Assembly (NCBI GenBank): GCA_963712115.1
Contig: CAVQGX010000032.1
Span: 1-64,000 of the forward strand
DNA length: 64,000 nt
Source: an uncultured delta proteobacterium
GTDB taxonomy: Bacteria; Desulfobacterota; Syntrophobacteria; BM002
Reading direction: 5' to 3'
Below, piece by piece: positions 403 through 42,700 of this stretch (position 1 is the first letter of the stretch; every line of letters begins with the position of its first letter). The notes beneath the pieces are model-generated. The model worked only from the letters and a program-made list of their open reading frames with translations. It did not search any database and was not told the DNA's origin. The position numbers and the translations under genes were made by a program.

Positions 403-2208
403 ATGAACATGGAGGCTATCGAGGCAATGAAGGCTACGCCAACCCGGAACAACCTGCCGTTACGGCTTGCAGATTTTTCCACTTTAGCAGAGGCGCTGGA
501 CTACGCGGCCCAGGGTGAGACCGGATTCAATTTTTACACCGGCACGGGTAAGCTACATAGTGTGCTGCCATATGCGGACTTGCGGGAACAAGCGCAAACG
601 CTGGCGCGCCGTCTTCACAGTTTAGGTTTAGAACGTGGCGCGCGGGTCGCCCTCGTCGCCGATACAACCCCGGACTTCCATATCTTCTTCTTTGCCTGCC
701 AATACGCTGGACTGATACCCGTCCCTCTTACGGCCTCAATCCATTTAGGCGGTCACCAGGCCTACGTGGAGCAGTTGCGAAGATTACTGACCACCTGCCA
801 GGCGGAAGTCGCCATGGCCCCAGCTGATTTTCTCCCCTTTCTCTTAGAGGCTGCGGAGGGACTAAACTTACGTTTTGCTGGCGGTCCTGAAGTCTTTGCC
901 GAGTTACCGGAACAAGAAACTCAGCTACACCCGTCCCAGCCCAAGGAGATAGCTTACCTGCAGTATACTTCGGGAAGTACCCGGTTCCCCCGCGGAGTGG
1001 TCATCACCCAAGAGACAGTCTTGAGGAACCTGGCGGACATCGTCACGCACGGCGTCAAGATTCGACCTGGGGACCGCTGTGTTTCCTGGCTTCCCTACTA
1101 TCATGATATGGGGCTTGTCGGGCTGGTGTTGGCCCCGCTGGCGTCCCAGTTATCCGTTGATTACCTGAGCACCCGAGATTTTGCCATGCGTCCCCGGGTA
1201 TGGCTGAAGATGATGACGGAAACTCGAGCTACGCTCTCTTTAAGCCCGCCTTTCGGTTATGAGTTGTGCGTGCGTCGTCTGCGCAAAGAAGAGTCAGATA
1301 AATTCGACCTCAGCGCCTGGCGCGTGGCCGGTGTCGGTGCGGAAACCATTCGACCCGAACCTTTGACCCAGTTCGCCGAAATGCTTGCACCAAGCAATTT
1401 TGACAAGAATGCTTTTCTCGCTTGCTACGGTATGGCGGAATGCTCCCTGGCAGTGAGCCTTGCACCTCTTGCCCAGGGGCTGGAGGTGGACTGCGTGGAT
1501 GCGGAGCATCTTGCTGAACACCAAGAGGCGCTGCCTGTGAACGGCGGGAACGGCAAGTCTGCTGTTCGATCCAACCATTTTGTCAATTGCGGAGTGCCGT
1601 TGCCGGATTATGAAGTTGAGGTTCGAGGCAAACACGGACGAGCTCTGGCAGAACGACGCTGCGGGACTCTTTTCGTTCGGGGACCAAGCGTAATGTCCGG
1701 CTATTTTGGCGACCCGGAAGCAACTCAACAGGTTCTGTCGCCAGATGGCTGGCTCGACACCGGAGATCTCGGCTACCGGATTGGGAACTCCTTTGTTGTT
1801 ACTGGACGCGAGAAGGATTTAATCATTATTAATGGCCGAAATATCTGGCCACAGGATCTCGAGTACCTGGCTGAGCAGCAGACCGAAGTAAGGACAGGAG
1901 ATGCCTCGGCTTTCTCGGTTCCTGGGCCGGATGGCGAAGAAAAGGCCGTTTTAGTGATCCAGTGCCGCGTCTCAGATGTAATGAAACGTGCCAGCCTGAT
2001 GGAACGGTTGCATGGCCTAGTTCGCGAAGAATTGGGCATCGACTGTTTTATCGAGTTGGTACCTTCTCACACACTGCCCAGAACTTCCTCCGGGAAGTTG
2101 TCTCGCTCCGGGGCACGACAGGATTTTCTGAAACGAGTTAACTGGGCACAATTGCGGCAACCCCAACCATTGGATTTTGCCCGGGCTCTTGGCGAGAGAG
2201 CCGTATAG
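403..2208 (+). CDS. Fatty acyl-AMP ligase (FAAL; acyl-ACP synthetase for a dedicated ACP)
   Basis: 601 aa; [18 protein letters not shown]-binding motif, [30 protein letters not shown]; adjacent to ACP and SPT. Confidence 0.9.
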
Positions 2209-2380: not shown

Positions 2381-3316
2381 ATGTCGCGCACGATAGCCCT
2401 GACGGGGGCGACGGGATTCATCGGCGGCGTCCTAGCGCGGCGACTGGAAACCATTGGCTGGCAGATCCGAGCGCTTGTCCGTCCCGCATCGCTCGGTGCA
2501 CGTTACGCCGGAACTGCCACCCAGTGGATAGAAGGTGACCTTGAGGATCTTGACAGCCTGCGCCGCCTGGTAAATAATGATGTTTATGCCGTAGTACACT
2601 GCGCGGGTGCAGTGCGGGGTGCTTCTCAAGCGCAGTTTGATGGTGTGAATGTAGATGGCGTGGCAAGACTGGTGCAAGCAGCGAGAGAGCAGCACCGGGT
2701 GCCACGTTTTTTATTGATATCTTCTCTGGCGGCACGGGAGCCGCACTTATCTCCTTACGCTGCCAGCAAGCGGCAAGGTGAGGACACGCTCGCCGCGACT
2801 GCCGGTGATATGAATTGGGCAGTGCTGCGACCGTCCGCTGTCTACGGACCTGGAGACAAGGAACTGCTTCCCCTTTTTCGCTGGATCGGGCGAGGTATCG
2901 CTCCGATTCTCGGCTCCCGTAGTGCACGGTTTTCTTTACTATACGTGGAAGATCTGGCAGAATCCGTGGTGCAATGGCTGAATTCTGATACCAATGAGCG
3001 GCGCGCTTTTGAATTGCACGATGGGCACCCAGACGGTTATGCTTGGCATGATGTGGTTGATACTGTCGCTCGGCTCTATGACAGGCACGTGTTTCGCATA
3101 CAAGTGCCGGTGGTCATACTCCGATTGTTGGCCGGTCTGAACCTTGGAGCGGCGCAAATATTCGGATATGCGCCAATGCTCACGCCCGGGAAGGTCCGCG
3201 AGCTCAACCACTCCAACTGGGTGTGTGATAATGACGCCCTGACCCGCGAGACGGGCTGGGCGCCGCGAGTTTCGCTCGCCGAGGGGTTGCAGCGCACTCT
3301 GAGACTGGGCGGCTGA
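2381..3316 (+). CDS. NAD-dependent epimerase/dehydratase (extended SDR), likely CerR-like ceramide reductase
   Basis: TGATGFIG Rossmann motif, ISSLAA, YAASK catalytic motif, RPSAVYGPGD; sits between FAAL and ACP-SPT as in alphaproteobacterial sphingolipid clusters. Confidence 0.75.
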   Translation: MSRTIALTGATGFIGGVLARRLETIGWQIRALVRPASLGARYAGTATQWIEGDLEDLDSLRRLVNNDVYAVVHCAGAVRGASQAQFDGVNVDGVARLVQAAREQHRVPRFLLISSLAAREPHLSPYAASKRQGEDTLAATAGDMNWAVLRPSAVYGPGDKELLPLFRWIGRGIAPILGSRSARFSLLYVEDLAESVVQWLNSDTNERRAFELHDGHPDGYAWHDVVDTVARLYDRHVFRIQVPVVILRLLAGLNLGAAQIFGYAPMLTPGKVRELNHSNWVCDNDALTRETGWAPRVSLAEGLQRTLRLGG

Positions 3317-4874: not shown

Positions 4875-6617
4875 ATGCGTTTACTGATTTCCCTAGCTCG
4901 CAAGTATCCCTGGCAAAGCGTTATCATGCTTCTCTCTCTTTTGTTAGCAGGAGTGGCCGAGGGGATCGGTCTGTCTGCCCTTCTTCCCTTGATCTCCATT
5001 GCCATCGGTAAACAAACTGGGGTTCAGGGGGGTACTTTTGCAGGTGGCTCAGGCCTGGAGCGGACGGTAAGCGAGACACTTTCAGCCATAGGTCTGAGCC
5101 CCACCCTCGGTGTATTGCTCACTGTGATCACCCTCGCTATAGTGCTGAAAGGTGTGCTGTTACTCTTGGCCAAAAAGCGGATTGGTTACACAGTCGCCCA
5201 AGTCGCTACTGACCTGCGTCTTTCCCTGCTCCGCGCACTCCTGGTCACCAAATGGGAGTACTTCATTCGTCAGCCCGTTGGCGTGCTCAGCAACGCCATA
5301 GCAACCGAGGCAAATCGGACGTCGAAGGCTTACTCGTGCGGGATCAACATGATCGCCCTACTCGTGCAGGCACTAATATACGCTTGTGTGGCCTTGCTCG
5401 TATCTTGGCGGGCAACCCTCCTTGCCATAGCCGCGGGCGTATTCCTGGTTTACATATTGAGCCATCTGGTCAAGAAAGCACGGCGAGCCGGTTTCCGCCA
5501 AACCGAATTAATGAAATCATTACTTACACATCTCACTGATACTCTGTTGTCGATTAAGCCTCTAAAAGCTATGGCTCGTGAAAGCCGGGCGGACGCCCTG
5601 TTGGAAAAGAAAACCAACCGGTTGAACAAAGCACTACGAAAGGAAGTTCTCACCAACGAGACCTTAAAAGCATCACAGGAGCCATTACTTATAGTTTTCG
5701 CAGCAATTGGCCTGTACGGTGCCCTCATTTACTGGCATATGACATTAGCAAGGGTGATGGTGCTGACATTTCTACTTGTTCGGGTGGTAAGACAGCTAAG
5801 CAAAGTCCAAGAGCAGTATCAACAGATGGCGATCCTTGAAAGCGCATATTGGTCACTAAAAGAAACTATCCATGAGGCGGAAAGGGCGCATGAGCCAGCG
5901 CTCGGTTCAGAGATCCCCTCCCTAAACCATGGAATTCGCTTGGATCGGGTTAGTTTTGCCTACGACCAAGAATTGGTGCTCCGGGATGCTTCTTTTGATT
6001 TTCCTTCCGGATTATTTACCGCAATCGTCGGCCCTTCAGGGGTGGGAAAAACAACTGTGGTGGATCTGTTAATGGGCTTGCTCCGACCTCAGGAAGGGGA
6101 AATATTTATCGACGACTTGCCCCTTGCTAAAGTCAATCTGAAAAGCTGGCGGAAAGTGATCGGCTATGTCCCCCAAGAGACCTTGCTGCTTCACGATACT
6201 ATTCTGATTAACGTTACACTCGGGGATCCTGATTTGACTGAGATAGACGCAGAGCAGGCATTACGGGCCGCGGAAGCTTGGGAGTTTGTAACGGCCATGC
6301 CACGTGGTATGCACAGCACCGTGGGTGAGCGTGGAAGTATGTTATCCGGGGGACAGCGGCAGCGCATTGCAATCGCCAGGGCTCTGGTACACAAACCGAA
6401 GCTGCTGATACTAGACGAGCCCACCAGTGCACTGGATCCCGAGAGCGAAGCAGCTATATGCAAGACTTTGGGCCAGCTGCGAGGGAGGGGGATAACGATC
6501 CTGGCTATTTCACATCAACCAAGAATAATGGATGTAGCAGACAGGGCTTATGAGTTGCAGAACGGCAAGGCTTTTGTGGTGCAGGACCACAAGCTTGCAA
6601 GCGTACATTCGGGGTAA
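4875..6617 (+). CDS. ABC exporter, fused TMD+NBD (MsbA/PglK-like glycolipid flippase)
   Basis: N-terminal TM helices; GPSGVGKT Walker A, LSGGQRQR signature, LLILDEPT Walker B. Confidence 0.85.
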   Translation: MRLLISLARKYPWQSVIMLLSLLLAGVAEGIGLSALLPLISIAIGKQTGVQGGTFAGGSGLERTVSETLSAIGLSPTLGVLLTVITLAIVLKGVLLLLAKKRIGYTVAQVATDLRLSLLRALLVTKWEYFIRQPVGVLSNAIATEANRTSKAYSCGINMIALLVQALIYACVALLVSWRATLLAIAAGVFLVYILSHLVKKARRAGFRQTELMKSLLTHLTDTLLSIKPLKAMARESRADALLEKKTNRLNKALRKEVLTNETLKASQEPLLIVFAAIGLYGALIYWHMTLARVMVLTFLLVRVVRQLSKVQEQYQQMAILESAYWSLKETIHEAERAHEPALGSEIPSLNHGIRLDRVSFAYDQELVLRDASFDFPSGLFTAIVGPSGVGKTTVVDLLMGLLRPQEGEIFIDDLPLAKVNLKSWRKVIGYVPQETLLLHDTILINVTLGDPDLTEIDAEQALRAAEAWEFVTAMPRGMHSTVGERGSMLSGGQRQRIAIARALVHKPKLLILDEPTSALDPESEAAICKTLGQLRGRGITILAISHQPRIMDVADRAYELQNGKAFVVQDHKLASVHSG

Positions 6618-6726: not shown

Positions 6727-8127
6727 ATGAAAAGGAAACTACAACTCCTCATCCCAGTGGAAAACCAGGTACGGGAGTTTGATGCCAAGCTTCTGCTTGC
6801 CTTTATTGCAGCAAAACGAGGATTTTCTTCAGTAATCGGTTCCCGACGAGAGATGGAATTTCGCATCGCTTCCTTTCCACGGAGTCTATATCTCTCCAAG
6901 AGTATGACGATCCGAAGCGCCCTATTGTTTAAAGTTGCTCACAAGGTAGGCCACCATATAGTTGCATGGGACGAGGAAGCTCTCGTTCATCTGCCACCCG
7001 AAACCTATTTCTCGGATCGACTCTCTCCAGCATCCATCCGCTACGTATCTCACCTGCTCGCCTGGGGACAAGGCAACGCCAACTTGTGGCGACAATATCC
7101 CAATCTACCAAACGGTATTCCCATCCATCTCACCGGAAATCCGCGGGTTGACATGCTTCGGCCTGAGATGCGTCCCTTTTTTGCAGAAGATGTGGAGAAG
7201 ATTCGGAAAAGTTGCGGAAATTTTATCCTGGTAAACACCAATTTCAACCACGTAAATGCCTTTTCTCCGGAGATGAATCTTTTCAAGCCTGTCAAGAAAC
7301 CCGGGGAAACGCCCAAGTTCGGACGGGGCGCCAGGGGCATGAGCCGCGAGTTTGCCGAGGGATTGAGGGATCACAAGCAAGCTGTTTTCCAAAACTTCCA
7401 GCAGCTTGTCCCTGCCGTCGAGCGATCATTTCCGGAGTACACCATTATCGTCCGGCCTCATCCCACAGAAAACCAGGAAGTCTATCGCAATATAGCTGCA
7501 CAGTGCAAGCGAGTGCAGGTAACCAACGAGGGCAACGTGGTGCCCTGGATTTTGGCCTCGAAGGCGGTCATTCACAATGGCTGCACCACCGGTTTAGAGG
7601 CATACGTTATGGGGGTGCCAGCCATTTCTTACAGGAAAACAGTCAACGATGTCTATGACTTGGGCTTTTATCGCTTGCCCAATTTGCTCAGTCACCAGTG
7701 CTTCGATTTCGAAGAGTTGCATGCAACCCTTGGCAATATTCTTGCTGGCAAGCTTGGGCCTGCCGATGGAGCTGAGCGCCAAGAACTGGTGAACCACTAC
7801 ATGGTAGCCCTAGAAGGCCCTCTCGCCTGCGAGAGAATCGTCGATACCTGCGAGCAGATTTCTAATGATAGGGCAGGACTGCGAAAACCAGCTTTGCGGC
7901 ATCGGCTGAATCGCTGGTACCTCGCAAAGGGACTTGGTTTAGCAAACCGTTACAAATCACACCTTCCAGGTGAATTTAATAAACCTGCTTTCCAGCGCCA
8001 TCGCTATCCGGGAGTTTCCATTGAAGAGTTGCGTGCTCGACTCTCGCGATTTCAGCATATACTAGGATACAGCGAAAAGCTGAAGGTGGAAGAAATATCT
8101 GATCAGATTTTTCAGATCAGCTCTTAA
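6727..8127 (+). CDS. Surface carbohydrate biosynthesis protein (GT-B-like, putative CMP-ulosonate transferase), paralog 1
   Basis: LIPVENQVRE, WDEEAL, TGNPR, ILVNTNF, VRPHPTE, IHNGCTTGLEA motifs; three further paralogs in the window; directly upstream of neuB/neuA-like genes. Confidence 0.65.
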   Translation: MKRKLQLLIPVENQVREFDAKLLLAFIAAKRGFSSVIGSRREMEFRIASFPRSLYLSKSMTIRSALLFKVAHKVGHHIVAWDEEALVHLPPETYFSDRLSPASIRYVSHLLAWGQGNANLWRQYPNLPNGIPIHLTGNPRVDMLRPEMRPFFAEDVEKIRKSCGNFILVNTNFNHVNAFSPEMNLFKPVKKPGETPKFGRGARGMSREFAEGLRDHKQAVFQNFQQLVPAVERSFPEYTIIVRPHPTENQEVYRNIAAQCKRVQVTNEGNVVPWILASKAVIHNGCTTGLEAYVMGVPAISYRKTVNDVYDLGFYRLPNLLSHQCFDFEELHATLGNILAGKLGPADGAERQELVNHYMVALEGPLACERIVDTCEQISNDRAGLRKPALRHRLNRWYLAKGLGLANRYKSHLPGEFNKPAFQRHRYPGVSIEELRARLSRFQHILGYSEKLKVEEISDQIFQISS

Positions 8128-8420: not shown

Positions 8421-9497
8421 ATGAGAAAACTGGTAATAGACGGAAAAACTATTACAGATGATGGCGATTGTTACGTTATTGCCGAAGTTGGACACAACCA
8501 CCAGGGGAAGCTCGAAACAGCCAAAGAGATGTTTCGGGTTGCCAAGGATTGCGGCGCTGATGCAGTCAAATTGCAGAAGCGAGATAATCGTCAGCTTTAT
8601 ACCCAAGCAGGATATGACAAGCCTTACGACCACGAAAACAGCTTTGGTCTTACCTATGGTGAGCACCGAGAAGCGCTGGAATTCGGCTGGGATGAATATA
8701 ATGAACTGATGGCCTATGCCAAAGAAATTGGGATCACCATGTTTGCAACAGCCTTTGACATTCCAAGTGGTGATTTTTTGGCGAAGCTTGACGTCCCGGC
8801 CTTTAAAGTGGCCTCAGGTGATCTAAAGAGTATTCCTCTTTTGACCTATATCGCTAAATTCCAAAAACCCATGATTCTCAGTACTGGCGGCGGAACCATG
8901 GAAGATGTCCATAGGGCCTATGATGCCATTATGCCCATTAACCAGCAACTTTGCATTCTGCAGTGCACCGCAGGATATCCGGCAGCTTTTGATGAGCTTA
9001 ATTTGAGGGTTATCACCAGTTTCAGAGAGCGCTTTCCCGACACTATCATTGGACTGTCCTCCCATGACAATGGGATCGCCATGGCAGTGGTGGGATATAT
9101 GTTGGGAGCAAGAGTTATCGAGAAACACTTCACCCTCAATCACACCTGGAAAGGCACCGACCATGCATTTTCTCTGGAGCCCATAGGGCTGAAGAAAATG
9201 GTTCGCGATTTGCGCAGGACGAGAATGGCCATGGGTGATGGCGTTAAGAAAGTTTACCAGACTGAGGTGAACCCCATAATCAAAATGGGTAAAAAGCTGG
9301 TAGCGGCGCGGGATTTGCCCGCAGGCCACGCTCTTAGGCGCGAAGATATTACCCTCAAGTCACCTGGCGACGGTCTGCCACCCTACGAATTGGACAAGGT
9401 AATAGGTCGGGTAACCCGTGGCCCTTTAAACAAAGATGATGACATCACCTTTGAGGTATTAAATGGATCAGAGGGCTGGGTGGAGGCCGCATCTTGA
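8421..9497 (+). CDS. neuB: NeuB-family ulosonic acid (PEP-condensing) synthase with C-terminal SAF domain
   Basis: IAEVGHNHQG, DAVKLQKR, KVASGD, ILSTG, SSHDNG, IEKHFTL, KSPGDGLPP. Confidence 0.88.
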   Translation: MRKLVIDGKTITDDGDCYVIAEVGHNHQGKLETAKEMFRVAKDCGADAVKLQKRDNRQLYTQAGYDKPYDHENSFGLTYGEHREALEFGWDEYNELMAYAKEIGITMFATAFDIPSGDFLAKLDVPAFKVASGDLKSIPLLTYIAKFQKPMILSTGGGTMEDVHRAYDAIMPINQQLCILQCTAGYPAAFDELNLRVITSFRERFPDTIIGLSSHDNGIAMAVVGYMLGARVIEKHFTLNHTWKGTDHAFSLEPIGLKKMVRDLRRTRMAMGDGVKKVYQTEVNPIIKMGKKLVAARDLPAGHALRREDITLKSPGDGLPPYELDKVIGRVTRGPLNKDDDITFEVLNGSEGWVEAAS

Positions 9498-10306
9498 ACG
9501 ACCTTTTTAGCTTAGAGGGTGAGATTGCTGTCGTTACTGGTGGTTTGGGCAAGTTAGGCCCCATCTGGATAGAAACACTGCTTGATGCCGGGGCCACTGT
9601 TTTCGTCCTCGATCGGCCTGGTCAAAAAATCAGTGAACAATTCGGTGAGATACAAAGACGCTTTCAAGACAACCGTCTTAGACTGGCCTACACCGACGTC
9701 AGGGACCGCTTAGCCTTAGAGACGGTTTGTAAGGAATGTTTGGAAGTCTTCGGGGTACCTTCAATCCTCGTCAACAACGCTGGCATAGATCGGCCACCAG
9801 ACCAACCTCAAGAAGGATATCTTCTGGAAGATATCCCCCTGGCAGAAAACCGGGAGATCCTTGAAGTCAATACTCTGGGGCTGTTCCTGGTGACCCAAGT
9901 CTTTGGTAGCGAGATGGTGAAAGCAGGTCGGGGCTCCATTATTAATATCGGATCATTATACGCCAGCGTTTCACCAGATTCGCGATTTTATGATCACATC
10001 CAGAGCGACCCACCCTTTCTCAAGCCGCCGGCCTACGGCGCTTCCAAGGCCGCCGTAGTTAACCTCACCAAGTATCTGGCCACCCATTGGGCTCCTCATG
10101 GAGTCCGGGTCAATGCGCTGTCGCCGGGCGGGGTAATTGGCGACCAGGATGAAAAATTCAAGCGAAAATTTTGCACTCGGGTGCCGATGGGCAGAATGGC
10201 GACAGCGAAAGACCTTGGTGGGCCTCTCCTCTTCCTAGCCTCTAGGGCCTCATCCTACGTGACCGGAATCGAGCTTGTGGTGGATGGTGGCTTTACCGCC
10301 TGGTAG
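9494..10306 (+). CDS. Short-chain dehydrogenase/reductase
   Basis: VTGGLGKLG, LVNNAGI, YGASK, VNALSPGG, VDGGFTAW; overlaps the neuB stop. Confidence 0.9.
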   Translation: MNDLFSLEGEIAVVTGGLGKLGPIWIETLLDAGATVFVLDRPGQKISEQFGEIQRRFQDNRLRLAYTDVRDRLALETVCKECLEVFGVPSILVNNAGIDRPPDQPQEGYLLEDIPLAENREILEVNTLGLFLVTQVFGSEMVKAGRGSIINIGSLYASVSPDSRFYDHIQSDPPFLKPPAYGASKAAVVNLTKYLATHWAPHGVRVNALSPGGVIGDQDEKFKRKFCTRVPMGRMATAKDLGGPLLFLASRASSYVTGIELVVDGGFTAW

Positions 10307-10320
10307 CAACATTTGAAGAA

Positions 10321-11805
10321 ATGGGGACAAGCATGGATCAAGAAGTAATTCCTAAAACTATTCTTAACTGGATTGACGGCAAAGAGTGCGAAGCAAACAC
10401 TGGCGATACTTTTGGAAAGTTGTCTCCGGTTTCCGGCAGAGAACTCGGTCGGGTGGCACGCTCAAGGGTGGAGGACGTCCAAAAAGCCATTCAGGTAGCT
10501 CGAAGGGCTCAACCGGCCTGGGCAGATTCCACCCCCGTATATCGTGGAGACCTGCTTCATGACATAGCCCAGGCAATGCGTAAACATCAGGAAGAGATTG
10601 CCAGCATTGTTTCCTTAGAGACCGGAATGTCTTTCAAGCAAGCCTTGGGTGAGACCGGTGGTGCCATTGCTCAGGGGGAGTTCATGGCAGGTGAGGGTCG
10701 CCGGCTCTACGGTCGAACTACCACCAGTGGGGTGCCTAATAAGTATGCCATGGTGGTCCGACAACCCCTTGGGGTGGCAGGCCTTATCATTGCTGCTAAC
10801 ACACCCATCGCCAATGTAGCCTGGAAGGTTTTCCCCGCTTTAATATGCGGAAATGGAGCGGTTCTCAAGGCAGCGGAGGATACGCCTGCAACCGCCTGGA
10901 TTGTGGGCAGGATAGCCAAAGAGGTGGGGTTGCCGCCCGGTGTGCTCAATATCATCCAGGGATACGGCGAGGAAGCCGGTGCACCACTGGTGGCCAATCC
11001 CGAGGTGGATGTTATAAGTTTTACTGGCTCCACCGAGGTTGGTCGTCAGATTGCTGAAGTTGCCGGACGAAGATTGGCCAAAGTTTCATTGGAACTGGGC
11101 GGTAAGAATCCCTTGGTGGTCTGCGATGACGCCGATCTGCAGAACGCGGCCAACTGGGTACTGCTTTCGGCTTTTAGTAACGCTGGTCAGCGTTGTGCCT
11201 CCGGGAGTCGCATAATCATCTTTGACTCAGTTTACGATGAGTTCCGAGATATGCTTGTGGAACAAACCAATAAACTCAAAGTTGGTCCGGGAGATGACGA
11301 TGATTTTGGCCCGGTAATCAATGAGAGGCAACTCACCAATATGCTGTCAGCTGTGGAACGAGCCCTGGAAAAAGGTGCGGTGGTCCTCACTGGAGGTCAC
11401 AGGCTAACCGATGCTGCACACGCAGACGGTTTCTACATGGCGCCCACAATACTTGAAAAGGTTGACCCCAAGGATGAAATGTCCACCAAGGAAATCTTCG
11501 GTCCCATTACTTGCCTTTATCGAGTGAAAGATTTTGCCGAAGCCTTGAGTTTAGCTAACGACTCACCTTACGGCCTCACTGCTTGTATCCACACCCGGAG
11601 TATTCATCGAGCCGTTGAATTCACTCAGAAAATTCAAGCCGGAGTTGCCATGGTAAACGCCGGGACTTACGGCAGTGAACCCCACATGCCCTTTGGGGGA
11701 TTGAAACAATCGGGCAACGGTACCCGAGAACCCGGGACTGAGGCACTGGACGTCTACTCTGATTTGAAAGATATTTACATTAATATAGATACAGAAATGC
11801 TTTAA
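10321..11805 (+). CDS. Aldehyde dehydrogenase family protein
   Basis: SFTGSTEVG, LELGGKNP, NAGQRCASGS (catalytic Cys), EIFGP, PFGGLKQSG. Confidence 0.92.
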   Translation: MGTSMDQEVIPKTILNWIDGKECEANTGDTFGKLSPVSGRELGRVARSRVEDVQKAIQVARRAQPAWADSTPVYRGDLLHDIAQAMRKHQEEIASIVSLETGMSFKQALGETGGAIAQGEFMAGEGRRLYGRTTTSGVPNKYAMVVRQPLGVAGLIIAANTPIANVAWKVFPALICGNGAVLKAAEDTPATAWIVGRIAKEVGLPPGVLNIIQGYGEEAGAPLVANPEVDVISFTGSTEVGRQIAEVAGRRLAKVSLELGGKNPLVVCDDADLQNAANWVLLSAFSNAGQRCASGSRIIIFDSVYDEFRDMLVEQTNKLKVGPGDDDDFGPVINERQLTNMLSAVERALEKGAVVLTGGHRLTDAAHADGFYMAPTILEKVDPKDEMSTKEIFGPITCLYRVKDFAEALSLANDSPYGLTACIHTRSIHRAVEFTQKIQAGVAMVNAGTYGSEPHMPFGGLKQSGNGTREPGTEALDVYSDLKDIYINIDTEML

Positions 11806-11816
11806 CCCTTAGCGGA

Positions 11817-11853
11817 TATTGGAGTGTTGGAGTACTGGAGTATTGGAGTGATG
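11817..11853. repeat. 8-bp tandem repeat (TRYTGGAG x4.5)
   Basis: TATTGGAG TGTTGGAG TACTGGAG TATTGGAG TGATG between the ALDH gene and neuA. Confidence 0.8.
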
Positions 11854-11861
11854 CTCATAAA

Positions 11862-12617
11862 ATGACTGATAAACAACCCAGCATTGCCGCCCTGATCCCC
11901 GCTCGAGCAGGTTCCAAGCGCGTACCCGATAAGAATATTCGGGCTTTGGCTGGTCATCCATTAATTGCCTACACCATCTCAGCCGCCTTGCAGAGCGAGG
12001 TTTTCTCTGCGGTCTTAGTTTCAACGGATTCGCAGTTATACGCAGATTTAGCAAAGTATTATGGCGCTGAAGTGCCTTACCTGCGTCCTCCAGAGCTCGC
12101 CGGAGATCTCTCCCCAGATATCGAATGGCTGGAATACACCCTGGAAAGACTTCGACAGGATGGCCGGGAATATGACTGTTTCAGCATCCTTCGACCTACC
12201 AGCCCCTTTCGTCTTCCTGAAACAATCCAACGGGCCTGGCGTGCCTTCAAGAAAGAAGAAGGCGTCGATTCTCTTCGGGCGGTGGAGAAGTGCAAGCAGC
12301 ACCCCGGCAAGATGTGGGTGGTGCGAGGTAATCGAATGGCGCCTCTCCTGCCGTTGACCCCTTCCGAGCAGCCATGGCATAGCAGCCAATACCAGTCATT
12401 GCCAGAAGTATACGCCCAGAACGCCAGCCTGGAGATTGCCTGGACGCGGGTTGTCTTTGAGGGAAGAACCATAGCAGGAAATGTGTTGATGCCTTTTTTT
12501 ACAGAGGACTACGAAGGATTTGACCTAAACAGTGCTTACGACTGGAATCTGGCTGAACACTTGGTAGACAGTGGCCAAGCTCGATTGCCCTCTGTTTCTC
12601 AACCCCCATGGCAGTAA
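11862..12617 (+). CDS. neuA: Acylneuraminate cytidylyltransferase (CMP-ulosonate synthetase)
   Basis: ALIPARAGSKRVPDKNIR, VSTDS, LRPTSPFR motifs. Confidence 0.88.
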   Translation: MTDKQPSIAALIPARAGSKRVPDKNIRALAGHPLIAYTISAALQSEVFSAVLVSTDSQLYADLAKYYGAEVPYLRPPELAGDLSPDIEWLEYTLERLRQDGREYDCFSILRPTSPFRLPETIQRAWRAFKKEEGVDSLRAVEKCKQHPGKMWVVRGNRMAPLLPLTPSEQPWHSSQYQSLPEVYAQNASLEIAWTRVVFEGRTIAGNVLMPFFTEDYEGFDLNSAYDWNLAEHLVDSGQARLPSVSQPPWQ

Positions 12618-12640
12618 CTGGTTAAAGGTCTATGTAAGTA

Positions 12641-12697
12641 AACCACAAAGACCACTTACTTTTAATTTCCTTTGTGATCTTTGTGTCCTTTGTGGTT
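12641..12697. repeat. Short inverted-repeat element of the AACCACARAG family
   Basis: AACCACAAAGACCAC...CTTTGTGATCTTTGTGTCCTTTGTGGTT. Confidence 0.7.
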
Positions 12698-12728
12698 AAT
12701 ATCCCCTGTGACCATCTACATTTGAGGA

Positions 12729-14681
12729 GTGTTCATAGTAATGCTAGAGATCAAGCTCATTCCGCAAGAGGAATTTCACCGTATTGAAAAAGCTGATATT
12801 CCCAAATACAAAAAACTACCGCTCCTTGCCGACATGTGTAGGGCTAATGCTCTGGCCACGGTGAAAAGAGCAGGCTCAGGTCATCTTGGCTCAAGTTTCA
12901 GCTCACTGGATATCGTAACTTTTCTCTACCACTCTGAGATGAACACCGCCAAACTGGGCATAGACCACCCCGACCGGGATATTTATTTTTCCTCTAAGGG
13001 ACACGATGCTCCTGGGCACTACGCTGTCCTTTATTCCTTGGGGATTACTCCCAAAAGATAAGTTTATCAATTTGAGACGTCTTGGCGGCACCCATGGTCA
13101 CCCGGATCTCAATGTTCCTGGAATTGAGGCTAATTCGGGTTCCCTTGGCATGGGTATTTCTAAAGCCAAAGGAATGGCCGTGGCCAAGAAAATGAATGGC
13201 TGGGGCGGACGAGTGCTTGTAATGACCGGGGATGGGGAACTGCAGGAGGGTCAAATCTGGGAGTCTTTACAGACCGCAGCCCACCAGGAGGTCACTAATA
13301 TTCAAGTAATTGTTGATTTTAACAAGATACAGACAGACAAGACATTGAATGAGATTATCGATTTAGGTGATCTGGAAAAGAAATTCCGAGTATTCGGCTG
13401 GCACGTTGAGCGCTGCGACGGGCACGACTTTAGCCAGCTAGAAAAGGTCTTCCAAGATTTCAGCTTAATAACCGACAAGCCAAAGGTTGTAATAGCAGAC
13501 ACCATAAAAGGAAAAGGCATATCTTTCATGGAGGGACCCACCGCTCTGCGGAACGGCAAGGGGCTTTACAAATGGCATGCAGGCGCTCCCGACGATGATT
13601 CATTTTTAGCAGGTTACGACGAGCTAGTCGAGCGGATAAATGGCCGACTTGAGGATGTGGGTTTGGAGTCACTGCACACCGAGATTCTGGAGACAAGGGA
13701 TAAGCACAGGATTAAGACTCAAAGACACCGCCGAAAAAGTGGTGAACGCTTTCGGTGATGCCTTGGCGGAGCTGGGAGCCAAGAGAAAGGATATTGTGGT
13801 TCTGGATGCTGATCTATCCGCTGACTGTGGACTGCGCCCTTTCGAGAATGCTTTCCCCGAGCGCTTTATCGAGAATGGTATCGCGGAGCAGGACATGGTC
13901 TCCATGGCAGGAGGATTAGCACTCCAGGGTTTATTGCCCATAGTAAATTCCTTTGGTGTATTTCTGGCCTCTCGGGCAAATGAGCAAATCTATAACAATG
14001 CCACCGAAAACACCAAGATAATCTATGTGTGTCACTACGCGGGGCTTATTCCTGCAGGTCCCGGCAAATCACACCAGAGTTTGCGCGACATCTCGCTTGT
14101 TGGCGCCTTGCCAAATTGTGTAATTCTGGAGCCCTGCAACGGCAAGGAGACAGAATGTGCTCTAGAGTGGTGCGTCGAAGAAGCAGAAGTTAACTGTATG
14201 ATGCGCTTAGTAATTTCCCCTTCTCCACGGACAATAATTTTACCAGAGGACTATAACTTTACCTTCGGCAAAGGAACCGTATTGAAGGAGGGAAAAGATG
14301 CTGTGCTATTTGCTTATGGTCCGGTGATGTTGAATGAAGCCCTGACAGCCGCCGAAATGCTCTCTGAGCAGGACTTTTCCCTGAAAATCGTCAATTTACC
14401 GTGGTTGAATCGAATAGATGGAAAGTGGCTGGAAGAAACCATTGGAGACTTTCAAACAATTTTTGCTCTTAGACAATCATTCCGAATACGGAGGCCTCGG
14501 AGATCATCTACTGAACGCATTGATGTTGTCTGACAACTTACGCAACAAGAAGTTGGTCAAATTTGCAGTTGAAGAACACCCAGCTTGTGGCACCCCACCA
14601 GAAGCACTTGTTTACCACAGATTAGATGGCAAAAGTTTAGCTGATCGGGTCCTAAGAACAATGAGCGAGAAGAAAAATTAA
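12729..14681 (+). CDS. Transketolase (N- and C-terminal domains in one gene), split by three +1 frameshifts
   Basis: ORFs 12729-13061, 13006-13758, 13640-14533, 14418-14681 join collinearly: GSGHLGSS, SKGHDAP, SGSLGMG, GDGELQEG (TPP binding), GIAEQDMVS. Confidence 0.85.
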
Positions 14682-14728: not shown

Positions 14729-15874
14729 TTAGAATGTGGCAGCTTGATTTAATACCATTTCATATTCATTACTTGTCAGTTTATCAATAATATTCAATTC
14801 TTCCTGGTTCAACGTCTTATACCTGGAAAGTGTACTCCTCATAATGCCATGTTGTCCTGTATCAAAACTGGTATCCGCTTTGATAGGATATCCATTGAAA
14901 GTTGGCGTCAACAGAATGTCATCGAACTCTATATCCAAAAAACTAGCCAAGTAACGCATTACTGCCTCTGTCTTGCTGATCAAATCTTCAAACCTGATAA
15001 CGCAGACTCTCTCTCCATATGTCTTTTTATTCCCTAACGTCGCCAGGGCGCTTTCCCTCCATTGACTTAATGCAATCTTCATATCACCGTATTTGTTCCT
15101 TTTAATATACTCGTTGTGCTTTAGAGCTGACGGAAACCAGTTCTTAGGATCTCTAATGATAGATATTAATCTCCCATCTGGATACACTCCAAAAAATGAC
15201 TGCATACTGCTCTTGTCCATCGCTAATCGTGCGGTAAAGGCCGTAATGTATTTCTTCTGGCCGTAACAATTTTGGTAATTCAACCAGGCACCGAAATAAG
15301 AAGTCATATATGCGTCGAACACATCGCGTTGTGTTATCGACTCAAGTAAATCAAAATACTTCAGAAAAATTTTTTTTTGTAGAGAGGGTAAAAAAATAAA
15401 GGGGAATGCCTCGTCTTGTCTTAGATATTTCCTATATCCTCCCTTAAAGTGTTCGATGATGTCATCCTCGAAAAGAGTAATAAACCACCACTCGGCATCA
15501 TCATTCAGATTTATTTTGGGCCATATATATTTCTTTGGCTTACCAATTTTCAACTCATACGGATGGGCATGGATTTCCGGATGGCGGTCGAAAAGTTGAG
15601 CGAGCAGTGTCCCCCCAGAACGCTGAATCTGGGAAATTAGTGCGAGCGGCGATATCACAGGAGTAAGATCCTGTAGACATACCTGAAACAAGTCTTTCAG
15701 ATTTGATTTACTCCCTTTGCATTCTCTGTTGAGCATTCTAGTGCGTGCCTTTGCCCTGCGATATTTCCTCCACTTTCTCTTGCTCCCCTTATCTACAAGG
15801 GACAACAATACGATTTTAACCAGTTCAGCTCTTGTAAGTGCACCTGACATTTTTTGATCAATCATTACACTCAA
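14729..15874 (-). CDS. Sulfotransferase family protein (type A, copy 1)
   Basis: SQIQRSGGTLL 5'-PSB loop, IIRDPKNW 3'-PB motif, IRFEDL. Confidence 0.8.
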   Translation of the reverse strand: MSVMIDQKMSGALTRAELVKIVLLSLVDKGSKRKWRKYRRAKARTRMLNRECKGSKSNLKDLFQVCLQDLTPVISPLALISQIQRSGGTLLAQLFDRHPEIHAHPYELKIGKPKKYIWPKINLNDDAEWWFITLFEDDIIEHFKGGYRKYLRQDEAFPFIFLPSLQKKIFLKYFDLLESITQRDVFDAYMTSYFGAWLNYQNCYGQKKYITAFTARLAMDKSSMQSFFGVYPDGRLISIIRDPKNWFPSALKHNEYIKRNKYGDMKIALSQWRESALATLGNKKTYGERVCVIRFEDLISKTEAVMRYLASFLDIEFDDILLTPTFNGYPIKADTSFDTGQHGIMRSTLSRYKTLNQEELNIIDKLTSNEYEMVLNQAATF

Positions 15875-17289: not shown

Positions 17290-18710
17290 ACCGGAGGTCA
17301 GTAAAGAGCGGAATGGCTGAAACACTCTTGATTCCAGTGGAAAACCAGGTGCGTGAACTGGATGCCAGGCTCTTGCTTGCCTGCGTTGCGGCGAGGCGGG
17401 AGATCCCTTCCATAATCGGACCCAAGCGGGAGGTAGAATCTCGCATTGCATCTTTTCCGAGAAGCATATTCCTCTCCAAATCTCTTAAGGATAGGCAAAC
17501 GCAGATTTTTCCCGATTTCGCGAAAGCTTGGCCATGAAATAGTGGCTTGGGATGAAGAGGCGCTGGTCCACCTGCCGCCCGAGATTTACTTCTCCCGGCG
17601 ACTCTCTGCCGTAGGGATGGAGTATGTGTCCCATTTATTTGCCTGGGGTGAAGATAACGCCGAGTTGTGGCGTCAGTATCCCGAACTGCCTGACTGAAAT
17701 ACCAATTCATGTCACCGGCAATCCGCGTGGTGACCTGCTGCGGCCCGAAATACGAGTCTTCTACGAAAGGGATGCCGAAGAGATCCGCAACACGTACGGG
17801 GATTTCATCCTCATTAATACCAATTTCAATCATGTAAATGCTTTCTATCCAGCACAGAATTTGTTCCAGCCGGTTAAACAACCAGGTGAAGAAGCCAGAT
17901 TCGGCCAGGCAGCCAGGGGTATGACCCGTGAGTATGCCGAAGGGTTGCGGGATCATAAACAGGCCGTCTTTGAGGATTTCCAGCGCCTTATTCCTGACCT
18001 CGAGAAATCATTTCCAGATTACAACATTGTCGTGCGGCCTCATCCCACAGAAAATCAGGAGATCTATCGCAGTATTGCTGCCCGATGTCAGCGGGTGCAG
18101 GTAACCAATGAGGGCAACGTGGTCCCTTGGCTTATGGCCACCAGGGCGGTCATTCACAACGGCTGTACCACGGGGGTGGAAGCCTACGTCATGCGGGTTC
18201 CTGCCATTTCCTTCAGGGAAACGGTAAATGACTACTATGACTATGGTTTTTATCAATTACCCAACCGGCTGAGTCACCAGTGTTTCGATTTCGCTGAGTT
18301 GCGAGAAACACTTGGAAAAATTCTAGTAGGCGAAATAGGATCGGCAGGTGGAGACAAACGTGAAGCCCTAGTAAACCATCATCTAGCGGCACTAGACGGG
18401 CCACTTGCCTGTGAACGGATCGTCGATGTTTTGGCAAAGATGGTGGATGGCCTATCTCATGTGGCCTAAGCAACCTTTTCGGGATCGGCTGGAAGGTTGG
18501 CTTGAGGCAACGAAGAGACGTGTGGAACGAAGCTTTGCACCTTACCTTCCGGGCTCCCTAAAATCACCAGAGTTCCTGCGCCATCGCTATCCCGGCATTT
18601 CCCTAGAGGAGATGCGCGCCCGGGTAGCACGATTCCAGCAAGTGCTCGGCGACGACGGAGAACTTAAGGTCGACCAGATCGGTGGTAAGCTCTTTCAGAT
18701 CAGCGGCTGA
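17286..18710 (+). CDS. Surface carbohydrate biosynthesis protein paralog 2, split by three +1 frameshifts
   Basis: Pieces 17286-17537, 17446-17697, 17624-18469, 18405-18710 align end to end with 6727-8127. Confidence 0.75.
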
Positions 18711-19898: not shown

Positions 19899-19932
19899 GA
19901 AAGGACTATTACCGACCTCAGTAGTAATACTT

Positions 19933-20934
19933 TCATTCAAATCTGACCACTTCCTTTAGCACCAGTGGATATGTTTCACTGGTCATCCTCTCAATGGTAT
20001 CTACTTCCTGCTCCGTTAATGTGTCTCTCCGTCGAGAGAAGACTATTCACAGTACCATGATCTTTCTACTTTGAAGCTCGTATTTGCTTTTATCGGAAAT
20101 TTATTGAAGGTCGGTACCAATAGAATATCATCAAATTCAATGCCGAGAAATTCTGCCAAATAACGCATAACTGCTTCAGTTTTGCTGACCAAATCTTCAA
20201 ACTTGATAAGGCAAACACGATCACCGTATCTCTCTTTGTTCCAGAGCATCGCTTGAGCGCTCTCATTCCATTCACTCACTGCCTGCCCAACATCTGTATA
20301 CCTTCCGGGCCAGCGTTTTTTGGCAGATGGAAACCAGCTCTTGGGGTCCCTTACAACAGAAATAAGTCGGCCGTCTGGATAGATCTCAAAAAAAGATTCC
20401 ATATTCTCCTTTATCATCCCTAGTCTCGGCGTATAAGCTGTAATGAACTTCTTTGAGCCGTAATAGTTTTGGTTGTTTAGCCAGGCGCCAAAATAAGAGG
20501 TCATGTATGCGTCGAATATATCGCGCATTGTTATCGATTGAACTGAATCAATATAGTTCAGAAAAATTTCCCTTTGCAGAGAAGAAATAAAAACGAAGGG
20601 AAAAGTTTCTTTGTCCTCTTTCTCCTTTTTGTACCCTTCTCTATTGTATTCACTGACTATATCTTCAAAAAGAATTTCAAACCATTGTCTCAGGACGATC
20701 ATTGAGATCTATTCTCGGCCAGATGCACTTTTCAGGGTATCCAATCATTAACTCGTGAGGATGAACATGAAGCTCAGGATGTCCATCAAAGAGCTGGCTC
20801 AGAAGTGTTCCCCCAGAGCCTTGAATCTGAGCGATCAATGCCAGGGGAGAAGTCACAGGTAAAACATGCTCTGAGCATATGCGAGAGAGGTCTTGAAGAT
20901 TTAATTTACTTTCATTAGCTTCCTTTCTGAACAT
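19933..20934 (-). CDS. Sulfotransferase family protein (type A, copy 2), frameshifted; start uncertain
   Basis: Pieces 20677-20934 (QIQGSGGTLL) and 20043-20702 (VRDPKSW, KFEDL), tail continuing to a TGA at 19933; paralog of 14729 and 22568. Confidence 0.72.
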
Positions 20935-21257
20935 CCATATTTTGTATCTGATCTTGACGTATTTACCTATAAAATAGCTTATGATTCTTTCACTAAGTCT
21001 TTGGCTTTATATCTTTTTCCTTTTCCCGGTGTCGAGAATTCACCCCAACGGTCCTTTTATTCGTTCCTGTCTCAGACTGACTTGCGTCGAGTTTCACGGC
21101 TCCATCAGTGCATTTTCAGCCTCAGAATGCATGGAATCTTACTATACTGCGTCACTGATTTGCTCATAGGCTTAGTCAGAGTTATCATCTTGTCTGCACT
21201 ACTGAGCTTATGGTGACATCAGGACAAGTCATTCACGGTCGGAATCCATGCGTCCTT

Positions 21258-22534: not shown

Positions 22535-22567
22535 CGATCCACATTCCTTAAAAGCGGATAGCCAAAC

Positions 22568-33479: not shown

Positions 33480-33492
33480 ATGTCTCTTTTTT

Positions 33493-42481: not shown

Positions 42482-42700
42482 AACCACAGAGGGCATAGGG
42501 TAGCGCAGCTACCACCAATTTCGAAATCCTAAATCCTAAGCACGAAACAAATCCGAATTTCAAATTCTCCAATGTTCAAAACAAAATTGAATAAATCTAT
42601 AATTTCGAAGTCTTGGTAATTTGGATTTTGAAAATTTGAATTTGTTTAGAATTTCGATATTTGGATTTCGGATTTGTTCTCTTCTGTGCACTCTATGGTT
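42482..42700. repeat. AACCACAGAG-family element enclosing a long imperfect heptamer inverted repeat
   Basis: AACCACAGAGGGCATAG...CTGTGCACTCTATGGTT; AAATCCTAAATCCTAAGCACGAAACAAATCCGAATTTC vs GAATTTGTTTAGAATTTCGATATTTGGATTTCGGATTT. Confidence 0.75.

Follow-up and report, generated by a model that had tools for sequence, protein, structure and literature searches.

What acidic sugar is made by a gene cluster in which a NeuB-family ulosonate synthase and a NeuA-type cytidylyltransferase are encoded together with a short-chain dehydrogenase/reductase (SDR), an aldehyde dehydrogenase (ALDH), and a transketolase-like (TK-like) protein? The question is raised by a stretch of 64,000 nucleotides (the window hereafter), the start of contig CAVQGX010000032.1 of an uncultured delta proteobacterium (Desulfobacterota, BM002; assembly GCA_963712115.1), in which five such genes lie between positions 8421 and 14681. 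We find that they belong to a conserved cassette, probably a variant of the ketodeoxynononic acid (Kdn)-type pathway to ulosonates activated with cytidine monophosphate (CMP), which is joined in this genome to genes for making and exporting sphingolipids. We observe directly which genes are present, how widely they are conserved, where they fall within their families, and which residues they carry. The whole proposal built on these observations, in which the cassette would synthesise a non-amino 3-deoxy-2-ulosonic acid by a Kdn- or animal-type route, convert it to its CMP form, and attach it to a lipid, has in our judgment an even chance of being right. Published sources are cited by PMC number.

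Gene content of the locus

Pfam and NCBIfam profiles identify NeuB, SDR, ALDH, NeuA, and a TK-like gene at the positions where an earlier note, made from the sequence alone, had read them, and the block contains no NeuC, sugar aminotransferase, or acetyltransferase gene. The genes are co-linear on one strand but are not a stand-alone operon: the plus-strand run starts at 403 and continues through the TK-like gene with gaps of -4 to 293 nt, the TTG start of the SDR gene overlapping the NeuB stop by 4 nt. The note had drawn its frame too narrowly, passing over sphingolipid genes, an ABC (ATP-binding cassette) exporter, and a candidate transferase of family TIGR04396. The TK-like gene is where the note placed it, not as a single open frame but as four overlapping open reading frame (ORF) pieces, and the five-gene observation is in this sense partly confirmed. 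The features of the run are as follows.

403..2208, plus strand, fatty acyl-AMP ligase (FAAL); NCBIfam NF006624, 813 bits (cut-off 600)
2381..3316, plus strand, reductase of the NAD-dependent epimerase/dehydratase family, candidate ceramide/ketosphinganine reductase; PF01370, 94 bits
3362..3616, plus strand, acyl carrier protein (ACP); PF00550, 46 bits
3616..4818, plus strand, serine palmitoyltransferase (SPT); NCBIfam equivalog NF047599, 644.8 bits (cut-off 500)
4875..6617, plus strand, MsbA/HepA/PglK-like ABC exporter, candidate lipid flippase; PF00664 and PF00005
6727..8127, plus strand, TIGR04396 protein of the glycosyltransferase GT-B type, candidate CMP-ulosonate transferase; TIGR04396, 378.7 bits (cut-off 125)
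8421..9497, plus strand, NeuB-family ulosonate synthase of a third branch, outside the neuraminic (Neu), legionaminic (Leg), and pseudaminic (Pse) acid groups; PF03102, 256 bits, plus SAF domain
9494..10306, plus strand, classical SDR with TTG start; TGxxxGxxG, NNAG, and YGASK motifs intact
10321..11805, plus strand, ALDH; PF00171, 513 bits
11818..11853, no strand, short tandem repeat of TGGAGT type in the ALDH-NeuA spacer; sequence inspection
11862..12617, plus strand, CMP-ulosonate synthetase of NeuA type; PF02348, 78 bits
12729..14681, plus strand, TK-like thiamine diphosphate (ThDP) enzyme, four frames as assembled; NF004559 matches of the pieces

Conservation of the cassette

Scanning the contigs of a single genome for each species, we confirmed 335 relatives of the window's NeuB, and the best 80 loci (74-96% identity) were kept. 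Their labels range over Desulfobacterales, Syntrophobacterales, Desulfobulbaceae, Geobacteraceae, Thiohalobacter, Thiogranum, Sedimenticola, Anaerolineales/Chloroflexi, Calditrichota, Myxococcota, and a Hyphomicrobiales bin. Neighbors were counted in 41 loci with at least 6.5 kb of downstream sequence, in 43 with at least 8 kb upstream, and in 31 with both flanks long; the genomes compared are mutually related, so that these counts overstate independence and describe a pattern rather than independent events. In the set with downstream sequence, SDR and NeuA accompany NeuB in all 41 loci, ALDH in 35, TIGR04396 in 32, and the TK-like gene in 31. Upstream, the ABC exporter is found in 31 of 43 loci, FAAL in 29, SPT in 28, and the reductase in 27. 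The 31 loci with both flanks include 18 with a phosphatase of the KdsC/YrbI family, 16 with a sulfotransferase-like family, and 16 with a MobA-like nucleotidyltransferase.

NeuB, SDR, and NeuA are the conserved core of the cassette, and ALDH and the TK-like gene are common but dispensable. The five-gene block whose conservation the earlier note had proposed to examine therefore holds for its core (41/41) and not for ALDH (35/41) or TK (31/41). The last two are jointly present in 30 of these loci and jointly absent from five; ALDH stands alone in five and TK in one. Where present they keep their places, the order NeuB-SDR-ALDH-NeuA-TK being fixed across several phyla, and the TK orthologues share 60-82% identity with the window's pieces; in two Chloroflexi loci the identity of the SDR drops to 44-45%. 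This degree of conservation is far beyond chance.

The MobA-like nucleotidyltransferase (271 aa, PF12804) stands upstream of FAAL in its 16 loci (e.g., L026:1423-2238); the window's contig begins just before FAAL, and the gene is therefore not visible here. In some loci the island also holds a second NeuA, remote in sequence (32% identity), an aminotransferase of the DegT type, or another NeuB (30%) (L017:14529-15194, 19619-20707; L014:20613-21068), and such genomes may use it to produce an additional nonulosonate of the amino type.

NeuB forms a separate branch

The earlier note had taken the product to be a non-amino ulosonate, and the properties of NeuB support it. The protein scores 285 bits against a cut-off of 399.65 for TIGR03569 (NeuB/LegI) and 238 bits against 340.25 for TIGR03586 (PseI), reaching neither. 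A search of 1.84 billion cluster representatives returned 17,958 NeuB matches (best identity 62%); among the top 150 representatives, the 79 of near-full length (320-400 aa) were scanned with NCBIfam, and none of the 79 reaches the TIGR03569 or the TIGR03586 cut-off. Tree references were taken from 151 genomes of the same phylum: nine sequences passing the NeuB/LegI threshold, 10 passing that of PseI, and 17 that reach neither. In the resulting tree (98 rows after removal of six duplicates; IQ-TREE quick search, LG+G4, SH-aLRT support only, midpoint root for drawing) a split with SH-aLRT support of 99 separates the window's clade (17 rows, own support 99) and 45 representatives from all 36 references. 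The window's NeuB thus falls outside the Neu/Leg and Pse groups, and neither tree nor genome offers what would have spoken for those sugars, a NeuB within such a clade with precursor genes elsewhere.

Residue patterns point the same way. The metal, phosphoenolpyruvate (PEP), and catalytic residues (E25, K53, Q55, K129, S132, Y186, H215, H236, and D247, Neisseria meningitidis (Nm) numbering) are conserved in the window's protein, its clade, and all other groups compared. Arg314 of the Nm enzyme contacts the N-acetyl carbonyl of a substrate analogue and is conserved in bacterial NeuS, and mammalian N-acetylneuraminic acid (Neu5Ac) 9-phosphate synthase has no equivalent (PMC11339185). In this column all 17 rows of the window's clade, including the window itself (Ser314), have Ser, and none of the 45 representatives has Arg, in contrast to 35 of the 36 references (NeuB/LegI, 9/9; PseI, 10/10; below both cut-offs, 16/17). 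The beta2-alpha2 loop, which contacts the C6 hydroxyl in NmNeuS (PMC11339185), is a second place of difference: K53, R54, H82, and R83, in or after this loop region, and K288 are specific to the branch (56-60 of 62 rows vs. at most 10% of references) and form a possible phosphate pocket, to judge from the sequences. E134 is mostly Asp in the branch. The window's NeuB thus shares with bacterial NeuB/LegI and PseI the fold (TIM barrel plus SAF) and the catalytic residues, and is unlike them in its scores below the cut-offs, its own branch, the change from Arg314 to Ser, the frequent Asp at E134, and the lack of NeuC or PseG partners. Neither Epimerase_2/NeuC (PF02350) nor PseG (TIGR03590) has a match in the genome, which is 94.4% complete. 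The low scores, the separate branch, Ser314, and the missing NeuC and PseG together support a non-amino product; Neu5Ac, Leg, or Pse as the product appears very unlikely.

A probable sugar-phosphate route

The phosphatase found in 18 of 31 loci matches the YrbI/KdsC subfamily model TIGR01670 (108.6 bits, cut-off 106.95) and stays below the KdsC model (113.9 vs. 208) and the Bacteroides Kdn-9-phosphate phosphatase model (91.5 vs. 180). Its presence makes an ordinary sugar phosphate the predicted substrate of NeuB. NeuA is closer to CMP-Neu5Ac synthetases than to KdsB (82 vs. 36 bits in a PDB search) and scores 136 bits with the PseF model, below its cut-off of 205.7. Taken together, family and residue patterns make it likely that the cassette follows a non-amino sugar-phosphate route of the Kdn or animal type.

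In such a route NeuB would condense PEP with a phosphorylated aldose, the simplest candidate being mannose 6-phosphate, which would give Kdn-9-phosphate. A phosphatase of the KdsC/YrbI family would then remove the phosphate; in this genome the only candidate is the sole homologue of the cassette phosphatase, on contig C17 (39% identity). NeuA would finally form the CMP-sugar. The closest known system is the CMP-Kdn route of Bacteroides thetaiotaomicron (synthase BT1714, phosphatase BT1713) and Prymnesium parvum, in which synthase, phosphatase, and cytidylyltransferase suffice (PMC6200933). Common to both are a NeuB-family synthase expected to use a sugar phosphate and PEP (BT1714 being likened by description only), the YrbI/KdsC phosphatase of 18 of the 31 relatives, a NeuA-type cytidylyltransferase, and the lack of NeuC and amino-sugar genes; the built-in SDR, ALDH, and remodelled TK, the linkage to lipid genes, and the lack of a phosphatase in the window set the cassette apart. 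With the animal route (NANS, phosphatase, CMAS) it shares the loss of the N-acetyl-binding Arg and the logic of phosphorylating and then dephosphorylating, NANS again being likened by description, and it differs in having no enzyme that forms ManNAc and in carrying tailoring enzymes absent from animals.

Two other readings of the cassette were dropped. A dihydroxypropanesulfonate (DHPS) dehydrogenase among the PDB matches of the SDR had raised a link to sulfoglycolysis, with its sulfo-transketolase and sulfolactaldehyde dehydrogenase, but the cassette phosphatase argues for phosphate and not sulfonate. A NeuB acting on a lipid aldehyde was set aside because the cassette is equally conserved without adjacent lipid genes.

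Lipid genes and the acceptor

In 28 of the 43 loci an SPT gene is found on the strand of NeuB no more than 10 kb upstream of it, and ACP adjoins SPT in L084-L087 as well. The arrangement resembles the Caulobacter-type cluster (spt, acp, acyl-ACP synthetase, cerR, bcerS), with which it shares the clustering of SPT, ACP, an acyl-activating enzyme, and an NAD-dependent reductase; unlike that cluster, it has a predicted CMP-derived ulosonate in place of phosphoglycerate as head group, and a built-in ABC exporter. Anionic ceramide lipids of the Caulobacter type reach the outer membrane (PMC11087976; PMC9393093), and no sphingolipid flippase is known (PMC11087976). The ABC exporter at 4875-6617, directly behind SPT, is a candidate for this role. 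Its best NCBIfam scores, all below cut-off, are to HepA (278), MsbA (239), and PglK (219), and it is additional to the msbA of the window, a second ABC gene at 42699-44504 between lpxB and waaA. The reductase at 2381..3316 is a candidate for the CerR role from its position, with no specific model reaching its cut-off.

Association of the two gene sets extends beyond physical linkage. Four of five carriers of the cassette that have no linked SPT encode an SPT orthologue (63-65% identity) with ACP on another contig, and in the Geobacteraceae carrier the unlinked SPT is accompanied by FAAL, the reductase, and the ABC gene. Among 22 genomes of the window's order, NeuB is found in 12 and SPT in seven, all seven NeuB-positive; SPT occurs in none of the 10 NeuB-negative genomes. 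The five genomes with NeuB and no SPT are fragmented metagenome-assembled genomes of 290-590 contigs. In three of these five (G010, G020, and G021) the NeuB match is itself incomplete and sits no more than about 300 bases from the start of a contig.

A sphingolipid as the acceptor seems to us evenly balanced between true and false. The strongest alternative, possible but less probable, is that the sugar goes to lipopolysaccharide (LPS) core or lipid A, to capsule, or to protein, and that the adjacency of SPT reflects a general outer-membrane island. Eight Thiohalobacter/Thiogranum-type loci (L033, L053, L061-L064, L076, and L081) speak for it, in which the cassette stands beside an LpxL-like acyltransferase and not SPT; most of them have an SCP2 lipid-binding protein, some an MsbA-like ABC gene, and their SPT-ACP pair is on another contig. 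These LpxL-like genes of gammaproteobacterial loci are the only acyltransferase-like genes among the conserved neighbor families. LptF/G lies upstream in L029, the TIGR04396 family is annotated just as a surface carbohydrate biosynthesis protein, and the window itself holds a full lipid A/core cluster on the minus strand from about 28 kb, 14-40 kb downstream of the cassette. The LpxL adjacency and this cluster mean that LPS could be the acceptor. In 28 of 43 loci FAAL, reductase, ACP, SPT, ABC, a HAD-family or TIGR04396 gene, and NeuB are packed tightly along a single strand, which tells against such a reading, as do the co-occurrence of SPT and NeuB at the level of the order and the SPT modules of four of the five unlinked carriers.

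If a sphingolipid is the acceptor, the adjacent MsbA-like ABC protein would flip the finished lipid, and the sulfotransferases and methyltransferase encoded nearby would decorate it. Sphingolipids with sugars of this kind have been mentioned elsewhere. Sialic-acid-type sugars on ceramide occur in animal gangliosides and in a Kdn-linked sphingolipid mentioned for Emiliania huxleyi (PMC6200933); both are eukaryotic. An aminoglycosphingolipid of Chlorobium limicola is attributed to Jensen (1991) by PMC11762602. Nothing ties any of the three to the cassette. Diverse and partly sulfur-bearing sphingolipids are ascribed to anaerobic marine bacteria including Desulfobacterota, the available text of that source reporting no ulosonate head group (PMC11334938). 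A bacterial lipid joining a sphingolipid or ceramide with an ulosonic or nonulosonic acid was not found among the literature matches listed (titles and abstract openings).

Proposed tailoring by SDR, ALDH, and the TK-like enzyme

The nearest families of the SDR, all below cut-off, are mannonate oxidoreductase (167 bits), gluconate 5-dehydrogenase (159), and KduD (136). Gluconate 5-dehydrogenase and KduD oxidise the penultimate hydroxyl of sugar acids, giving a terminal ketol. The nearest family of ALDH is alpha-ketoglutaric semialdehyde dehydrogenase (430 bits, cut-off 770), whose substrate is a 2-keto-3-deoxy-acid semialdehyde; the catalytic Glu and Cys motifs ELGG and FSNAGQRC are intact. 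At the very strict threshold of E up to 1e-100, ALDH has no match in PDB.

The TK-like protein is a paralogue beyond the housekeeping transketolase of the genome. Its nearest counterparts are the human-type and split transketolases (228 bits with the human enzyme), and its four pieces score 41.6, 157.4, 146.8, and 25 bits with NF004559, in total about 371, short of the curated cut-off of 488. In an alignment of 26 orthologues with the genome's canonical transketolase, the motifs for ThDP, metal, and the catalytic His and Glu (SGH, KGH, GHP, GDG..N, AEQ, SHQ) are kept, and the canonical Asp and Arg are lost: GEDGPTHQ has become PAGPGKSHQ and the Arg of TRQ is Ile. We take the Asp of GEDGPTHQ to bind the C2 hydroxyl of the acceptor and the Arg of (S/T)RQ to bind the sugar phosphate. 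Compared with canonical, human-type, and split transketolases, the window's enzyme therefore has the same ThDP, metal, and catalytic His/Glu motifs; it differs from canonical enzymes in scoring below NCBIfam cut-offs, in the replaced Asp and Arg, and in being a second copy to the housekeeping enzyme.

These features would fit a trimming of the sugar tail. The SDR would oxidise the tail of the sugar acid at its last hydroxyl but one, leaving a terminal CH2OH-C(=O)-CHOH ketol (the 8-keto form), the remodelled TK would cut off the two-carbon ketol unit (C8-C9), and ALDH would oxidise the remaining C7 aldehyde to a seven-carbon 3-deoxy-hept-2-ulosaric diacid of the Dha (3-deoxy-heptulosaric acid) type. 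We propose tail trimming tentatively, as a reading of sequence that is somewhat less probable than its failure; we still regard a Dha-like dicarboxylic acid as a good guess for the product. With a Kdn precursor the diacid would be, by the rules of nomenclature, a stereoisomer of Dha and not Dha itself. Substrates, the order of tailoring, the acceptor, and whether trimming precedes or follows CMP activation are what we infer here.

Two other accounts of these enzymes compete with trimming. In the first, the sugar is plain Kdn or a keto or epimeric form of it that the SDR produces, and ALDH and the TK-like protein are peripheral, handling a by-product or a non-sugar substituent. The complete NeuB-SDR-NeuA set in 41 of 41 loci, five of which carry nothing more, is what this account predicts, and the closest known pathway consists of synthase, phosphatase, and cytidylyltransferase only (PMC6200933). 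We consider it unlikely: ALDH and TK hold fixed positions in the cassette across several phyla and co-occur in 30 of 41 loci, and the 60-82% identity of the TK orthologues speaks for selection on a role specific to the cassette.

In the second account, that of the earlier note, transketolase supplies NeuB with a short aldose or aldose phosphate, and SDR and ALDH oxidise the terminal CH2OH to a carboxylate. All three enzymes do act on carbonyl or sugar substrates, the five loci with SDR and ALDH and no TK would suit a terminal oxidation without trimming, and the phosphatase agrees with a sugar-phosphate substrate. The enzyme roles are nevertheless not supported, and the scheme is improbable. 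TK is gone from 10 of 41 loci in which NeuB, SDR, and NeuA are always there; the genome has a housekeeping transketolase, and the cluster enzyme is without the canonical Asp and Arg. Since the SDR occurs in every one of the 41 loci, 6 of which lack ALDH and 10 of which lack TK, neither ALDH nor TK is needed to feed NeuB. Oxidation of the terminal carbon is opposed by the nearest families of the SDR, which take secondary and not primary hydroxyls, and by five loci in which the SDR has neither ALDH nor TK beside it. The diacid product named in the note may still hold by another route, such as the trimming proposed above.

The broken frame of the TK-like gene bears on any role of its product. Its pieces (12729-13061, 13006-13758, 13640-14533, and 14418-14681) result from +1 insertions at three places, near 13048, 13717, and 14466, as judged against L004, the closest relative (84% DNA identity); none of them falls within a long homopolymer. 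The orthologue is a single frame of 650-671 aa in all six relatives checked (L004, L007, L013, L019, L033, and L071). Two other genes of this assembly are split too, the normally essential lpxK (minus strand; N-terminal half 40156-40728, C-terminal half 39660-40232) and the housekeeping transketolase (contig C21:12497-14609, as 12497-13633 and 13497-14609), so the breaks in the cluster gene cannot be read as pseudogenisation. Public metagenomes were compared in four runs, all as Logan contigs and not reads, the best containing 0.33 of the words of the stretch compared. In relatives' contigs the extra base is missing at each site, though not in every run: at 13048 (X2, 47.5/47.5; X4, 82.1/107.5; X15, 4.97/4.97), at 13717 (X2, 11.1/25.4; X4, 23.3/76.9), and at about 14466-14468 (X1, 2.99/15.7; X2, 10.1/18.5; X4, 0/32.1), figures that concern relatives and not the strain of the window. 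The breaks are probably assembly errors, and genuine decay of the gene in this strain may be the alternative.

The spacers on either side of NeuA are repetitive. The ALDH-NeuA spacer (11818-11853) holds about four tandem units of TGGAGT type and shows a spike in depth and many unrelated loose ends in all four metagenome runs, which indicates that the motif recurs in many other contexts. The NeuA-TK spacer (12618-12728) contains repeated CTTTGTG motifs shared with L004, and some related contigs bypass it (joints 12589-12712 and 12609-12737) with different letters between.

The TIGR04396 protein

The product of the gene at 6727..8127, a full member of TIGR04396, matches no Pfam family at thresholds and has no sequence relative in PDB at E up to 1. 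It reaches 61.3 bits with the BFO_1060 glycosyltransferase domain model (NF046086), a domain-level match below the cut-off of 200. A structure predicted from a 26-sequence alignment (pLDDT 87) has the GT-B fold, with structural matches to non-hydrolysing UDP-GlcNAc 2-epimerases (Z 20.3), the CDP-ribitol polymerase TarL (19.4), NeuC (18.5-18.6), a CMP-bound capsule polymerase (17.4), and TagF (16.7). The modelled fold alone cannot tell an epimerase from a transferase. RPHPTE and WDEEA are invariant in the 26 sequences, the third position of the acidic motif being Ala and not Gly, and each locus has one to three paralogues (55-65% identity).

We favor the protein as a candidate transferase on the number of paralogues, the invariant motifs, and the match to the BFO_1060 family. 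Transferases of nonulosonic acids (NulO) in Tannerella are of GT-B/TagB-like type, with HP and D/E-D/E-G motifs, and are genetically implicated for Pse and Leg (PMC5420450). Those of T. forsythia (Tanf_01245/BFO_1060), which use CMP-NulO, share the fold type and the HP motif with the window's protein; they differ in that the latter is a full TIGR04396 member and that theirs is a protein-bound glycan as acceptor. In the proposed pathway, TIGR04396 proteins would transfer the sugar to an outer-membrane lipid, here most likely the sphingolipid encoded upstream.

Could the protein instead be a NeuC-like nucleotide-sugar 2-epimerase or hydrolase that releases the aldose for NeuB? Its best structural matches are UDP-GlcNAc 2-epimerases including NeuC (Z 18.5-20.3), and the paralogues in the window show faint PF02350 matches. 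We hold this to be highly improbable, given one to three paralogues per locus, no Pfam family for the window's protein, TarL, TagF, and CMP-bound polymerases within 1-4 Z units of the epimerases, the domain-level match to the Tannerella NulO transferases (PMC5420450), and a NeuB without the acetamido-binding Arg. A canonical Neu5Ac, Leg, or Pse pathway with precursor genes elsewhere is scarcely credible: full-length DegT-type aminotransferases on contigs C39 and C40, fragments on C19, and the incompleteness of the genome leave it some room, and against it stand a NeuB below both cut-offs and on its own branch, the loss of the N-acetyl-binding Arg, and the missing NeuC and PseG.

Other features of the window

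Downstream of the cassette, further TIGR04396-like genes are dispersed among sulfotransferases.

14729..15874, minus strand, sulfotransferase; PF13469, 51 bits; homologues of 45-56% identity in L013, L017, L034, and L071
16438..17289, plus strand, FkbM-family methyltransferase; PF05050, 60 bits; homologues in 5 of 31 loci
17624..18469, plus strand, short TIGR04396 paralogue or fragment; all-vs-all BLAST grouping, faint Epimerase_2 match of 18 bits
19010..19762, plus strand, sulfotransferase-like protein of a family travelling with the cassette; homologues in 16 of 31 loci, faint PF00685 match only
20043..23590, minus strand, two sulfotransferase genes (20043-20702 and 22568-23590), with unassigned ORFs between them; PF13469, 53 and 50 bits
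24133..25245, plus strand, TIGR04396-family paralogue of 370 aa; all-vs-all BLAST grouping

The shorter TIGR04396-like ORFs interspersed with the sulfotransferases (17624-18469, 24133-25245, and 25708-26736) may be fragments made by indels or genuine truncated paralogues.

The minus-strand cluster encodes BamA, OmpH, LpxD, FabZ, LpxA, an LpxI-oxidoreductase fusion, LpxB, MsbA, WaaA, and LpxK, and also an LpxL-like protein, two heptosyltransferases, GmhB, a GT4 glycosyltransferase, and three WaaP-like kinases. Its presence alongside the cassette indicates that the whole neighborhood concerns the outer membrane. The fusion (45811-47703, minus strand, 630 aa) joins the N- and C-terminal domains of LpxI to an oxidoreductase domain of the GFO/IDH/MocA family, to which GnnA of the 2,3-diamino lipid A pathway belongs; the fusion may indicate lipid A of GlcN3N type. 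Three consecutive Kdo/WaaP-family kinase genes (31846-34314, minus strand) adjoin GT4 and GT9 core glycosyltransferase genes, which suggests a heavily phosphorylated LPS core.

Discussion

Several observations weigh against the proposal as a whole, beside the relatedness of the genomes behind all the counts. A strict three-step trimming unit predicts that SDR, ALDH, and TK occur together, yet the SDR is universal, ALDH is missing from 6 and TK from 10 of the 41 loci, and in six only one of these two is found (ALDH in five, TK in one); with the SDR universal and the other two not, the SDR must yield a product useful alone. The window's TK gene is out of frame as assembled. The cluster in the window has no cassette phosphatase. 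In structural comparison, the UDP-GlcNAc 2-epimerases (Z 20.3) rank slightly above TarL (19.4) and TagF (16.7). On the lipid side, in the Thiohalobacter/Thiogranum loci it is an LpxL-like gene, and not SPT, that adjoins the cassette, the sole SPT-like match of the Anaerolineales carrier is at 36% identity, and no bacterial ceramide synthase turned up in or near the cluster, no search aimed at bCerS having been made.

The most specific form of the proposal is a ganglioside-like outer-membrane lipid in relatives of sulfate reducers and in some sulfur-oxidising Gammaproteobacteria, a (sulfated) ceramide with a Dha-type diacid made by transketolase clipping. In this full form we regard it as rather unlikely. 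If it is true, it would show for the first time how a heptulosaric acid is synthesised and would bring a new class of transketolase substrate and a candidate flippase for bacterial sphingolipids.

The cassette is widespread yet undescribed within the literature searched, largely outside subscription journals, where NeuB, transketolase, aldehyde dehydrogenase, and cytidylyltransferase were not found together. Ketodeoxyoctonic acid (Kdo), sialic acids, Leg, and Pse influence the recognition of bacterial surfaces. To these the cassette would add an ulosonate branch that starts in an animal- or Kdn-like manner and is then remodelled by enzymes for which no activity on acids of this kind is known. 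Its fusion with sphingolipid genes supplies a testable head-group and exporter candidate for the abundant sphingolipids attributed to anaerobic marine Desulfobacterota (PMC11334938), and the cassette is also a candidate explanation of how anionic sphingolipids might complement LPS.

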